Assembly: GCF_049075655.1 (NCBI RefSeq)
Contig: NZ_CP157522.1
Coordinates: forward strand, 672,001-736,000
DNA: 64,000 nucleotides
Direction: 5' to 3'
Source: Methanothermococcus sp. Ax23
GTDB lineage: Archaea; AGJL01; Methanococci; Methanococcales; Methanococcaceae
Below, in pieces: positions 32,150 to 35,896 of this stretch. The stretch's first letter is position 1, and the number at the start of each line of letters is the position of its first letter. Both the position numbers and the translations under genes were made by a program. The notes under the pieces are model-generated. The model made no database searches. It had not been told where the DNA came from and was given only the letters and a program-made list of their open reading frames with translations.

Positions 32150-33658
32150 ATGAAAACAATACTTGGAAAAATCCATTTAAAATGGTGTAAAAACTGCAAT
32201 GTCCCAGTTCTTGATAAAAAATGCGGAATCTGTGGATATGATACATTTGATGTAAAATTAACGCCACCAGCTGATGCGAGACCAGCATTTAAAGAAGATA
32301 TTGTTATGATTAATAATATATTAAAAAATCAATTTGGAGTAAATGACAATATTTTTAAAAATAAAATAATTCTCATAAATAAAATTCCCGGAAAGGACTA
32401 CATGAAGGAAATAATACTTGATGGAGTTGTTTTTGGGATTTTGAAGTATGATGAAGAAAAAAACAGCTGGTCAATTATACCTACTGTTGAAGGAGCTCGG
32501 AGGATAATAAACATAGGAGGTAATAAAAAAATAATTGTTATAAAAAAGGATGTGGTTCCATTTATTCTAAAAAAACATGCATCAGTTCTAAGACCGGGAG
32601 TTATATACGCATCAGAGGATATAGAAAAAAATGACGATGTAATTATTTTAGTTGAGAATGAAAATGAAGAAAAAGATGAAAATTATGAAAAATATAAACA
32701 TGAAAAAAATACCAATCTCAAAGACATAAATGTTTTAGGCGTTGGAAGGGCGAGAATGGACTACAACGAAATAGTTAATTCAGAAAAAGGTATGGTGGCA
32801 AAGGTCAGGCATGCCGAAACACCGAAAGAGGCAAACTATTTAAAAGAAACTGGGAATTTTGAAGAATCAATTAAAAAAATGATTGAAGCAAATGAAAATG
32901 CAATAAGTAAATTTGAAAGCAATTCAGTAGGATTTATGAGAAATACAATAAAAGAAAGGACAAACAAACCGCCAGTTGTTGCATATTCGGGAGGTAAAGA
33001 TAGTCTTGTGGTGCTTTTACTTGCATTGAAGGCATTTGAAAATGAAGATATTGATTTTGATGTCTTATTTACAGATACAAATTTGGAGCTCCCAGAAACT
33101 TTAAAAAATATATCCGATGTTGAGGAAAGATACAATATAAATATAATTAAAGCAGAATCAACTGATTTTTGGGAAAAACTTGAAGAATACGGACCCCCTG
33201 GAAGGGATTACAGATGGTGCAGTGAAGTATGTAAAATGAAGCCCCTTGAAAAAATAATAAACGATAGATACCCTAATGGCTGTTTAACATTTGTAGGTTT
33301 AAGGAAATACGAGTCCATGAACCGTTCAAAAAAGCCAAGAATTTGGAAAAGTCCCCATATTGAAAAACAAATGCTTTCCGCCCCAATATTAAACTGGTCT
33401 GCCATGCATGTTTGGATTTACCTATTTAAAAACAATGCACCATATAATAAATTATATGAAAAATGTTTTGATAGAGTTGGATGCTATATGTGTCCTGCCA
33501 TGGAGCTCGGAGAAATTGAATTAATTAAAAAATTATATCCTGAGCTCTGGAAAAGATGGGAAGATTTCTTAATAGATTATGCAAAAAGAAATAATTTAGA
33601 TGATGAATGGGTGAGAAGCGGTTGGAGATGGAAATACGGAAAGAAGGATAAAGGTTAA
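32150..33658 (+). CDS. PAPS-reductase-family protein with Zn-ribbon and PUA domain
   Basis: N-terminal WCKNC...CGIC, PUA (LRPGV...GVG.A), PP-loop SGGKDS, RWCSEVCK, ES..R, RVGCYMCP. Confidence 0.88.
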   Translation: MKTILGKIHLKWCKNCNVPVLDKKCGICGYDTFDVKLTPPADARPAFKEDIVMINNILKNQFGVNDNIFKNKIILINKIPGKDYMKEIILDGVVFGILKYDEEKNSWSIIPTVEGARRIINIGGNKKIIVIKKDVVPFILKKHASVLRPGVIYASEDIEKNDDVIILVENENEEKDENYEKYKHEKNTNLKDINVLGVGRARMDYNEIVNSEKGMVAKVRHAETPKEANYLKETGNFEESIKKMIEANENAISKFESNSVGFMRNTIKERTNKPPVVAYSGGKDSLVVLLLALKAFENEDIDFDVLFTDTNLELPETLKNISDVEERYNINIIKAESTDFWEKLEEYGPPGRDYRWCSEVCKMKPLEKIINDRYPNGCLTFVGLRKYESMNRSKKPRIWKSPHIEKQMLSAPILNWSAMHVWIYLFKNNAPYNKLYEKCFDRVGCYMCPAMELGEIELIKKLYPELWKRWEDFLIDYAKRNNLDDEWVRSGWRWKYGKKDKG

Positions 33659-33753
33659 AATTAAATTATAATTAAATTTAATTAAAAACCTATAAATATC
33701 ATCTGAAAAAGATATAAACAAAATAATAAATAGCAGTCAAAGGAGTTGATAAA

Positions 33754-34035
33754 ATGCCAAAAATGGTTCTACTTCCAAAACTTACAATGGCTCTTGGAGG
33801 ATATATAAGGGAAACTGTCCAGCCTTATGGTGAGGATGAGGCAAAACCATTTCCTTATAGAAATGTAATTGTTGGTAATCCAACGGATGAACCTATAAAG
33901 ATAGATGTGCCTGCCTATGATGATGAATGGGTGGAGAGACATAAGAATCTTGGTTTAATCGTTGTTCCAGTGAGTGTTGAAGATGATTTTGTGGGAATGT
34001 ATAAAATGGTTCAGGAGAGAGTAAAAAGGGCTTAA
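33754..34035 (+). CDS. ehbP: energy-converting hydrogenase B subunit EhbP
   Basis: MPKMVLLPKLTMALGGYIRE...FPYRNVIVGNPTDEPIKIDVP signature. Confidence 0.85.
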   Translation: MPKMVLLPKLTMALGGYIRETVQPYGEDEAKPFPYRNVIVGNPTDEPIKIDVPAYDDEWVERHKNLGLIVVPVSVEDDFVGMYKMVQERVKRA

Positions 34036-34211
34036 TTAATGTGAAGTACCCCACCCTTACGGATGGGGCTTCCTGCTTCACTGAACGAGCTTGCCATCAT
34101 CGGTAGTTATTAACTACCTAGGTAGGGGCTCACTTCTCCACAGGCTCACCCCCGCCTCCCGCAGGTGCATGAAAATAGTATAGAATGGACTTGGTTTTCG
34201 CCCATTGACAT
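34021..34211 (-). ncRNA. putative TnpB omega-RNA (reRNA) scaffold plus flanking guide
   Basis: BRE/TATA CGAAAAATATAAATA (34232-34246) lies upstream of GCCTGTGGAG...GTGAAGCAGGAAGCCCC...TTCAC, which is typical of tnpB 3'/right-end RNA. Confidence 0.55.
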
Positions 34212-34345
34212 ATTATACTATTATAACATAGTATTTATATTTTTCGTCGGGTTTCCGAGCAATAGCGAAGGAAAGTAATGAAATGCGAAGCATTTCATCT
34301 GATTTCATCCCCTCCCTCACGGGAGGGGTCTTCCCGCCGACATTA
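34041..34345 (-). mobile_element. non-autonomous IS200/IS605-family miniature element (both ends, no tnpA/tnpB)
   Basis: Minus strand: left-end-like GGGAAGACCCCTCCC-GTGA-GGGAGGGGATG and right-end-like GAAGCCCCATCC-GTAA-GGGTGGGGTACTTCAC. It is a GC-rich island in an AT-rich spacer. The left boundary is uncertain by ~15 bp. Confidence 0.8.
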
Positions 34346-34407
34346 GATATATTATAAATTAATGTAATATGTATATATAACAACTTATAGGTTTTATGGT
34401 GGATTTT

Positions 34408-35088
34408 ATGATAAAAGGAGTGTTATTTGATTTGGACGACACACTCTACGACTCTTCGAGCTTTGCAGACCGAGCTCGGAGAGAGGCAATAAAAATGATG
34501 ATAGATGCAGGATTAAATGCCACAGAGGAAGAGGCATATAATATCCTTCAAAGAATAATAAAACAGAAAGGTTCAAATTATAACCGTCATTTTGATGACC
34601 TTGTAAAGGCAATTATGGGACATTACGAGCCAAAGATAATAACTATGGGGATAATTACCTACCACAATGTTAAATTTGCTCTTCTAAGACCTTACCCAGA
34701 TACTATAAAGACACTTATAGCACTAAAAAAAATGGGATTAAAATTGGGAGTAATTACTGATGGCATTACAATAAAGCAATGGGAAAAACTTATACGGCTC
34801 GGCATAGTGGATTTTTTCGATGAAGTGGTAACATCAGAAGAGTTTGGACTTGGGAAACCCAATGTAGAATTCTTCGAATACGGCATTAAAAAGATGGGTT
34901 TAAATCCAGATGAAGCAGTATATGTGGGTGATAGGATAGATAGGGACATAATTCCCGCCAATAAAGTTGGCATGTGTGCTATTAGAATCTTAAAAGGCAA
35001 ATACAGGGATGTAGAAGGCGGTGAATGTGTTTATGAAGTAAATAATTTGCTGGAAGTAGTGGATATTGTAAAAAACTTAAAAAGCTAA
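34408..35088 (+). CDS. HAD-superfamily hydrolase (MJ1437-like)
   Basis: FDLDDTLYD, ITDG...QWEKLIRLG, GKP, YVGDR...DI. Confidence 0.9.
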   Translation: MIKGVLFDLDDTLYDSSSFADRARREAIKMMIDAGLNATEEEAYNILQRIIKQKGSNYNRHFDDLVKAIMGHYEPKIITMGIITYHNVKFALLRPYPDTIKTLIALKKMGLKLGVITDGITIKQWEKLIRLGIVDFFDEVVTSEEFGLGKPNVEFFEYGIKKMGLNPDEAVYVGDRIDRDIIPANKVGMCAIRILKGKYRDVEGGECVYEVNNLLEVVDIVKNLKS

Positions 35089-35098
35089 TCGTGGAATT

Positions 35099-35896
35099 AT
35101 GTTCAAAGATGTATTAATTAAAATAAACAGTGCAATAGATGCTATAAGAGGATTAACGGCATTTATGACTCGAATACCTATGGGAAATTTTAAAAGTGGT
35201 TTCGAAGAGATGTCAAAATATTTAGTGTTTATCATATTCATAGGTATGTTTATAGGATTTATTGGGTCAATTGCATCATATCCATTTTATCATTTGGGAA
35301 TTAAATCTAACATTATTGTAGGAGCTCTTGTATTGTTTATTATGTTATATATTCAAGGGTTCCATCATGTTGATGGATTGGGGGATTATGGGGATGCCTG
35401 GATGGTGATGGGAAGTGCAAGAAAAAAGTTGGATGTAATGAAGGATAAATATATGGGTGTCGGTGCATTTGTGTTTATATTTTTTACGGAGCTCATCTCT
35501 GTGGCGTCAATAGGGCATCTATATGAAATAACATATTCGGATTTTTTACTTTTTGTAAAATTTATTATTTTAGTTGAGGCTTGTTCAAGATTGGGGCTTT
35601 TAACCTGTGCATGCTGTGGAATACCATCAAAAGACGGCACAGGTAGATATTTTGTTAAAAACACCGATGAATACCATTTATTCATGGGATATTTATTGTT
35701 GATGATACTATCATTTATAATGGGCATTCCAAAAATAGGGGTGTTGTGCTCAACATTTGCAGTATTTTTTGGCACTTTCATTGCATGGAATTCAAATAAA
35801 AATCTAAAATATGTTACAGGCGATGTCTTAGGGGCATCCAATGAACTAACTAGGGCTTTGGTTTTCATCGTCCTTATATTCTCATTAAATATTTAA
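35099..35896 (+). CDS. cobS: adenosylcobinamide-GDP ribazoletransferase (cobalamin synthase)
   Basis: FMTRIP, GFHHVDGLGDYGD, VMKD..G..G, VTGDVLGA..E. Confidence 0.93.
   Translation: MFKDVLIKINSAIDAIRGLTAFMTRIPMGNFKSGFEEMSKYLVFIIFIGMFIGFIGSIASYPFYHLGIKSNIIVGALVLFIMLYIQGFHHVDGLGDYGDAWMVMGSARKKLDVMKDKYMGVGAFVFIFFTELISVASIGHLYEITYSDFLLFVKFIILVEACSRLGLLTCACCGIPSKDGTGRYFVKNTDEYHLFMGYLLLMILSFIMGIPKIGVLCSTFAVFFGTFIAWNSNKNLKYVTGDVLGASNELTRALVFIVLIFSLNI

Follow-up and report, generated by a model that had tools for sequence, protein, structure and literature searches.

The locus and the limits of the element

The stretch of DNA under study, hereafter the window, comprises 64,000 nt of Methanothermococcus sp. 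Ax23 (contig NZ_CP157522.1, positions 672,001 to 736,000), in which two plus-strand genes, ehbP (33754..34035, 93 aa; PF10622 Ehbp, E 9.1e-39) and a gene for a HAD-type hydrolase (34396..35088; TIGR02253, E 2.9e-79), enclose a 306-bp mini-element on the minus strand at 34041-34346. The right end (RE) of the mini-element, 34041 (genome 706041), and the stop of the convergent ehbP gene (34033-34035) are 5 nt apart, and the hydrolase gene starts 49 nt past the left end (LE) of the element. The locus forms a GC-rich island (GC 0.45-0.54) in surroundings of about 0.3; only chance open reading frames (ORFs) of 56 and 62 aa overlap the mini-element, and no tRNA was found near it. It appears to be a gene-less derivative of an IS200/IS605 transposon that has kept a promoter and the scaffold of an omega RNA, the guide RNA of TnpB nucleases.

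A search of the genome (1.67 Mb, 98.9% complete) with a 340-nt mini-element query returned 22 matches, among them four siblings at 986, 1036, 1071 and 1154 kb (three of them named c986, c1036 and c1154 below) with a core that is 82-92% identical. Sibling homology ceases exactly at ...TACTTCAC, that is, at 34041, where the RE had been placed from the sequence beforehand (the original prediction), and it begins, as does homology to two tnpB elements described below, at the CTAATGTCGGCGGGAAG that opens the LE (34247..34346). The limits 34041-34346 are set by an empty site in a relative. A 1.2-kb query spanning the locus matched all 31 genomes searched via the flanking genes, and in the closest sister species (G003) the flanks, 89% and 95% identical, abut exactly at ...GGGCTTAATTAAT|ATAATA (in the minus-strand sense ...TATTAT|ATTAATTAAG) without target duplication, the hydrolase gene following ehbP after about 40 nt; G003 reads ...AAAAGGGCTTAATTAAT|ATAATAAATA... 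where the window reads ...TTAATTAAT|GTGAAGTA...CGACATTAG|ATATATTA.... A 12.7-kb contig of another relative likewise jumps over 34038-34392, and G003 also has the exact empty site of sibling c1036, preceded by TTTAT. For both the window copy and c1036, insertion is thus seen 3' of a conserved pentanucleotide without target duplication, and at least these two copies inserted after the split from G003, so that the family was mobile recently.

The original prediction had given its range as 34021-34345 and named CTAAT and TTTAT as candidates for the target pentanucleotide (TAM). Since the boundary is C34346, CTAAT lies inside the element and falls away; TTTAT stands as the family consensus, being present 5' of 8 of 11 family left ends, with TTTAA at 2/11 and TATAT, the motif at the window copy (34347..34351, minus strand), at 1/11. 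The empty sites also bear on the idea that the locus is an ordinary conserved terminator or a structured 3' untranslated region of ehbP. Such a reading would suit GC-rich hairpins directly after a stop codon, but the sequence is absent from the locus in G003, G012 and other relatives despite conserved flanks, and it recurs across the genome as a repeat that has the ends of a transposon; by this comparison of sequences the terminator reading is already refuted, and we give it practically no chance.

Direct reading of the minus strand across 33700-34700, the strand to which all features of the element below belong, located every motif of the original prediction at the coordinates it had assigned. 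The subterminal LE hairpin, CCCCTCCC-GTGA-GGGAGGGG (34309-34328), is enclosed by GTCGG...CCGAC, and the RE, GAAG-CCCCATCC-GTAA-GGGTGGGG-TACTTCAC, which closes at 34041, carries a hairpin (CCCCATCC-GTAA-GGGTGGGG) of similar sequence on the same strand; there are no inverted terminal repeats. The sole stem mismatch reads U-G on this strand, as had been claimed; read from the plus strand it would be A-C. Nested in the LE is a 52-nt double-hairpin module (34253..34304, loop motif TTCGCTATTGCTC), recognised by alignment of the copies and missing at the same spot in c1154 and c1036. Next comes an archaeal BRE/TATA-like promoter, CGAAAAATATAAATA (34232..34246), which serves as the tnpB promoter in the parent elements and is predicted to be active, and then a fast-evolving spacer (34207..34231) expected to hold the transcription start, which typically lies about 22-27 nt past an archaeal TATA box. 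The spacer is followed by a 5' hairpin, AAUGGGC-GAAAACCAA-GUCCAUU (34184..34206), an island from the middle of tnpB (codons ..I-G-E-N-Q-A..), and, after a linker, by the omega-RNA-type scaffold (34041..34170), identified by a covariance model and by covariation. The scaffold consists of a P1 hairpin with a GGGAG loop (34147-34167), a P2 helix in which CCUG (34141-34144) pairs with CAGG (34072-34075), a kink-turn-like GGAG/UGAAG followed by an expanded P3 that holds the hairpin GGTAGTTA-A-TAACTACC (34118-34102), the RE hairpin (34049-34068) and a terminal stretch, UACUUCAC (34041-34048). The RE-flanking DNA would supply the guide, ATTAATTAAGCCCTTTTTAC (34021..34040), in which a T5 run occupies positions 14-18. 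For the minus strand the folding energy is -115.2 kcal/mol compared with -86.6 +/- 4.7 kcal/mol for shuffled sequences (z -6.0), and the plus strand gives z -4.2; motifs and fold are more than chance. An ATG at 34211 opens a 21-codon frame, and this micro-ORF (19-21 codons) is kept in 5/5 copies; it was rejected as a peptide gene, about 5 non-synonymous versus 3 synonymous differences, counted by eye, giving no sign of peptide selection.

Descent from tnpB elements

The genome contains 21 TnpB (PF07282) matches, and two tnpB elements, E913 (genome 913228-914660) and E438 (438903-440367), share with the mini-element the start of the LE (TTTAT|CTAATGTCGGCG.GAAG...), the promoter box, which in both lies 54 nt upstream of the tnpB ATG, and the RE. 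An identical 50-nt insert splits both tnpB ORFs and breaks the frame; because the halves cover positions 2-256 (E 1.2e-89) and 258-359 (E 2.4e-41) of the NF038281 IS200_TnpB profile, nothing but the reading frame has been lost. The parent protein scores 300.9 bits with IS200_TnpB versus 113.8 bits with IS607_TnpB, a likeness to IS200/IS605 TnpB systems. The 5'-hairpin island reads on as GGCGA across the point of the 50-nt insert in both surviving tnpB copies, and the mini-element holds an uninterrupted tnpB junction (..GGCGAAAACCAAG..), which forms its 5' hairpin; given this junction, the mini-element descends from an insert-free parent. A 12-nt match, GAAAACCAAGCC, further connects the parent tnpB to siblings c986 and c1154.

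The anatomy and parentage of the mini-element are firm, and they agree with the original prediction of a protein-less IS200/IS605-type derivative formed by internal deletion: an IS1341-type tnpB element would have lost its interior and retained the LE, the tnpB promoter, presumably still active, the scaffold and the RE. The siblings for which a genome check had been proposed exist (the four above). Of the tnpA/tnpB parent with the same ends, the tnpB part is borne out by E913 and E438, the intactness is not, both genes being interrupted and Y1 TnpA missing; and a stretch described as resembling a tnpB tail, CCTGCGGGAGGCGGGGGTGAGCCTGTGGAG, is not a coding tail, since it lies just after the tnpB stop in the parents. 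An IS607 origin was also considered and rejected: the genome has two serine-recombinase/tnpB pairs, but their ends differ. These pairs lie at genome 46898-48638 and 1510598-1512338, each with a serine recombinase and a 438-aa TnpB, and one of the recombinase frames contains an in-frame TAG.

The assignment of the ends draws on a genome of the order (G010) that carries an LE of the mini-element type, a degraded Y1 tnpA and a family-B tnpB with a mini-element-type scaffold; because the degraded tnpA sits between such an LE and the family-B tnpB, the ends of the mini-element belong to the IS200/IS605 family. An intact tnpA joined to exactly these ends was not seen, and intact 144-aa Y1 TnpAs occur in three other genomes of the order. 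Intact relatives of the cognate TnpB are found in Methanosarcinales and Methanomicrobiales, Methanohalophilus loci among them (60-70% identical, 370-372 aa in 6/6 loci examined), with TTTAT-type flanks and similar LEs, and LEs related to that of the mini-element lie upstream of intact tnpB in Methanosarcinales loci.

Three independent mini lineages are present in the genome, each retaining LE, promoter, 3' scaffold and RE; besides the lineage of the window element, c334 and c497 derive from intact family-B tnpB, and c1054 from the T1425393 type. The genome still has intact tnpB genes of both kinds, three of family B (TnpBs of 418-455 aa) and one of the T1425393 type (421 aa). The minis c334, c497 and c1054 (genome 334642-334979, 497440-497760 and 1054800-1055100) comprise LE, TATA box, short scaffold and RE; in family 2 the scaffold measures just about 90 nt and the parent TnpBs are intact. 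In five genomes, 36 scaffold hits were examined (one weak hit excluded): 14 come after a long tnpB match, 4 are preceded by just a short remnant, and upstream of the other 18 there is nothing TnpB-like.

Double-hairpin modules of about 50 nt, such as the one nested in the LE, also occur in the scaffold P3 loop and in the tnpB ORF (E913, 913720-913771; E438; the E913 right-end region; loci L068 and L074 of G003). In one module type the loop, YTCGCTATYGCTC, is conserved; the genome holds 37 fuzzy matches to it, of which many lie beyond IS elements and about 25, judged by eye, sit in a hairpin context. We rejected the possibility that the 50-nt tnpB insert is a spliced archaeal intron, as no bulge-helix-bulge was found by hand and the minimum free energy fold consists of two local hairpins, in keeping with an insertion. 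The only piece of tnpB interior in the mini-element (34184-34206) spans the exact 50-nt module site of both tnpB copies (genome 913718-913776), and in the minis this island forms an improved 7-bp hairpin; coincidence and a shared structural hotspot are both possible. A 426-nt contig from a hydrothermal-vent RNA library (run X1, record 3), placed at window 34330-34746, shows no difference across the hydrolase gene and the first 17 nt of the LE and then continues with LE letters of the c986/c1036 type and an extra module, a hint that natural copies of the element at this locus differ in their modules.

A compact scaffold class and its conservation

Applied to the window scaffold, a covariance model (R1) gave 145.7 bits (E 7e-38). 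Alignment of 12 right-end regions of the genome showed a P1 hairpin with a GGGAG loop, a long-range CCUG/CAGG helix, a kink-turn-like GGAG/UGAAG loop, a variable P3, the RE hairpin and a terminal UAMUUCAC. All five inner P1 pairs (5/5) are swapped between two families with pairing at 100%, a candidate pseudoknot, GUGAAG/CUUCAC, shows one G-C to U-A swap, and the RE stem carries a compensatory A-U/U-A change among copies. R1 matched 14 copies in the genome at E < 1e-3 and, across the order, 6 of 40 genomes. Among distant TnpB relatives, the scaffold was found directly after the tnpB stop at 34 of 35 loci (drawn from 80 loci of TnpB relatives and including Methanosarcinales, Methanomicrobiales, cyanobacteria and Firmicutes), and it likewise follows the stop in the parents. 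In the relatives' alignment, 93% of cells are paired and 15 of 17 pairs change on both sides, a result that 0/500 shuffles reach and from which slid controls drop to 28-53%; this alignment was fitted to R1, which favours structure, yet the RE and P1 stems are wholly different in sequence across its rows. The scaffold probably represents a class of compact omega RNAs, 90-130 nt long and placed behind the stop codon of tnpB.

The sole resemblance to an Rfam family was to RAGATH-18 at 34070-34144 (22 bits versus a gathering score of 44.9), the other match being a chance microRNA, and the best RAGATH-18 (RF03064) score anywhere in the genome is 28.8 bits, below the 44.9 threshold. RAGATH-18 has been described as the core of the IS607 TnpB guide RNA (reRNA) (Ren et al., 2024, PMC11061315; here and below, published systems are compared on parts of the cited texts), and the window scaffold shares with it the core motif CCUGUGGAG...UGAAGCAGGAA and a helix with a kink-turn or E-loop-like internal loop. 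Unlike IS607/RAGATH-18, the scaffold stays at those 22 bits and its ends are of the hairpin type of IS200/IS605; the resemblance is likeness, not membership.

Conservation among the five sibling copies is uneven. Mean pairwise identity is 0.96 in the promoter box, 0.60 in the 26-nt spacer after it, 0.94 in the 5' hairpin, 0.84 in the linker, 0.96 in the 127-nt scaffold and 0.35 in the flank that would serve as guide, the drop falling exactly at the scaffold boundary, 34041. Across the stems of the 5' hairpin, P3 and RE, eight of nine varying pairs remain paired in all copies and one is broken in c1036; most of the retained varying pairs are G-U, which would be A-C on the opposite strand, and in the 5' hairpin three different sibling C-to-U changes each leave a G-U pair.

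Proposed homing in trans and the alternatives

Our preferred reading, to which we assign a probability of about 0.8, is that the mini-element is a non-autonomous IS200/IS605 element, a palindrome-associated transposable element (PATE), whose promoter and omega RNA have been kept for re-homing by a TnpB acting in trans, with transcription, TnpB binding and homing as predicted steps. The insertion, which came after the sister-species split and left no target duplication, lies 3' of a TTTAT-like motif at 5 nt beyond the end of ehbP, and two subterminal hairpins have been retained for recognition by Y1 TnpA. The former tnpB promoter would be fused to an RNA of ~165 nt (5' hairpin, linker and a 130-nt scaffold closing at the right end), and transcription would run on into the flank, the readthrough therefore providing a locus-specific guide. 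Upon excision by TnpA, a trans TnpB loaded with the mini-element RNA would cut the restored site (TAM + ATTAATTAAGCCC...), and recombination with the sister chromosome would restore the element. Because the guide is specific to its locus, a PATE would gain from homing only with its own omega RNA, and this need would explain the conserved promoter and scaffold. That the RNA is used as a guide by TnpB in trans is plausible.

Several results weigh against the homing reading. Y1 TnpA (PF01797) has 0 matches in the genome at 98.9% completeness and both cognate tnpB genes are interrupted, so that the TnpA/TnpB system of this genome looks stalled; none of 40 genomes of the order encodes a close intact homologue of the cognate TnpB (the next best are 39-40% identical), and with both cognate genes broken as well, the mini-element RNA may now be without a partner. 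The P3 of the mini-element is unlike the P3 of the two surviving parents, and an Rfam scan of 33000-35500 (E up to 1) returned no family at its gathering score. Contigs from four RNA-library runs (contigs only; four of 18 runs listed) do not cover 34051-34214, and a 197-nt X1 contig aligning to 34237-34328 is uninformative on the window locus, since its 5 differences and loose ends agree with c334/c497-type copies. Finally, the uneven conservation could partly come from gene conversion or from a hypermutable AT-rich spacer.

The missing Y1 TnpA, the two interrupted cognate genes, the lack of an intact close homologue among the 40 genomes and the RNA contigs, which give no expression support, would all suit a dead relic, that is, a decayed transposon fragment with no present function whose RNA, if any, is noise. 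A relic is harder to reconcile with a promoter and a scaffold that are 96% identical while the spacer between them is at 60%, with stem changes that preserve pairing, with the recent mobility implied by window and c1036 copies that postdate the G003 split, and with the persistence in the genome of four tnpB genes, three intact ones of family B and one of the T1425393 type; we regard it as possible but doubtful. Improbable, in our estimate, is a further reading in which promoter and omega-RNA cassettes are under purifying selection in a genome lacking Y1 TnpA and an intact cognate TnpB, either because a ~40%-identical TnpB (family B or T1425393 type) uses the RNAs or because they have a TnpB-independent role at convergent 3' ends.

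The guide was examined for what it might target. The would-be guide of the window copy, read from 34040 to 34021, does overlap the ehbP stop at 34033-34035, as the original prediction had noted; its proposal that the RNA is aimed antisense at ehbP found no support as a function, the guide being the RE flank by construction, and none of 9/9 guides (five siblings, two family-2 minis and two parents) has a second perfect 16-nt match in the genome. The near matches listed for these guides (1-2 mismatches) mostly lack a preceding TAM. A promoter and a scaffold without a nuclease gene do resemble a stand-alone guide locus, and the scaffold is conserved, as might be expected of a domesticated cassette whose RNA directs a TnpB or TldR-like protein to a second genomic site and so regulates a gene; against this stand the 9/9 guides without a second site (a nuclease-dead TnpB partner was not searched for) and the fact that each guide is merely the flank of a fresh insertion, and we consider such a role very unlikely.

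Seven of 14 right ends in the family lie within -3 to +6 nt of a convergent gene's stop: those at genome 986782, 1036633, 1425745 and 1055100 supply the stop codon, and those at 706041, 1154320 and 497440 have the stop 1-6 nt away. The share expected from harmless TTTAT sites is 10.6% (P about 3e-4, in a post hoc test), and in distant relatives with looser genomes 4/34 right ends are stop-adjacent. This excess, together with the complementarity of the predicted transcript to the last ehbP codons and a report of haloarchaeal transcripts overlapping the tnpB 3' end as functional noncoding RNAs (PMC4615843), could speak for a cis-antisense regulator, in which a promoter-driven RNA over the ehbP 3' end lowers or stabilises ehbP mRNA independently of TnpB. 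However, the stop-codon abutment is explained by the TAM complement, ATAAA, which contains TAA, and by the RE end, GTGAAG, which brings TGA; the siblings adjoin unrelated genes; transcription would probably stop at the T5 run of the guide, after ~18 nt of overlap; and since the sister species lacks the element, ehbP works without it. We therefore judge an antisense role quite unlikely, as is any ehbP-directed reading of the guide. Compared with relatives, the c1036 and c986 sites changed from ..AGA TAA to ..AGG TGA and from ..ACA TAA to ..ACG TGA, and these insertions are silent for the host protein, because the change in the last sense codon is synonymous and TGA replaces TAA. A limited literature search, too narrow to claim absence from print, found no report of a transposon end regenerating a host stop codon. 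The ehbP overlap is a side effect of the sites at which insertion of these elements can do no harm.

Elements of this kind have precedents. The PATEs of Haloquadratum walsbyi are protein-less, without inverted terminal repeats or target duplication, have near-terminal palindromes in common with IS605-type elements, arise by core deletion of tnpB elements, persist where tnpA is a pseudogene or absent, and receive, like their parents, insertions of small repeats (Dyall-Smith et al., 2011, PMC3119063). The window mini-element is like them in all those traits, and the habit of its ~50-nt modules is similar to that of the small mobile repeats in Haloquadratum PATEs and IS605 elements, the nested inserts being ~50-nt double hairpins here and SMR-A repeats of about 110 bp there; it differs in its archaeal order, in its unrelated sequence and in an interior defined as promoter plus omega-RNA scaffold with a selection signature. 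The PATE-like elements of Geobacillus stearothermophilus, which have no protein genes and often encode omega RNAs that need TnpB in trans (Meers et al., 2023, PMC10055086), share the homing logic, but their host is a bacterium with active TnpA, whereas that of the window element is an archaeon whose genome lacks TnpA and whose cognate tnpB genes are broken, and the window element has an archaeal TATA/BRE promoter fused to the scaffold. The archaeal SisTnpB1, with the TAM TTTAA, has been shown to be an RNA-guided nuclease (bioRxiv 10.1101/2023.03.06.531077). As in its omega RNA (reRNA), the window scaffold ends at the right end, takes its guide from the flank and goes with an AT-rich TAM (TTTAT/TTTAA); unlike SisTnpB1, the window element has no nuclease gene in cis and is known here from sequence alone, and scaffolds of the parent TnpB clade are located past the stop codon, clear of the ORF, unlike the omega RNA of that comparison. 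The available text of PMC12558985 yielded no mention of PATE, orphan or promoter. The concept of an omega-RNA-bearing PATE served by TnpB in trans is already in print (PMC10055086); what this case adds is its host group, a precisely defined anatomy, the signature of selection and the apparent lack, at present, of both TnpA and an intact cognate TnpB.

The window element reveals no new mechanism, and nothing indicates regulation of the hydrogenase gene. What it offers is a clean archaeal case, with exact boundaries, empty sites and parents, of a gene-less IS605 derivative in which a promoter and a guide-RNA scaffold are the conserved cargo. Its scaffold class, with strong covariation, spans methanogens to cyanobacteria and Firmicutes, and the covariance model together with the TTTAT-type TAM could aid the annotation and selection of small TnpB systems. 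For the family itself, the window element supports the idea that mini-elements persist by borrowing TnpB in trans.

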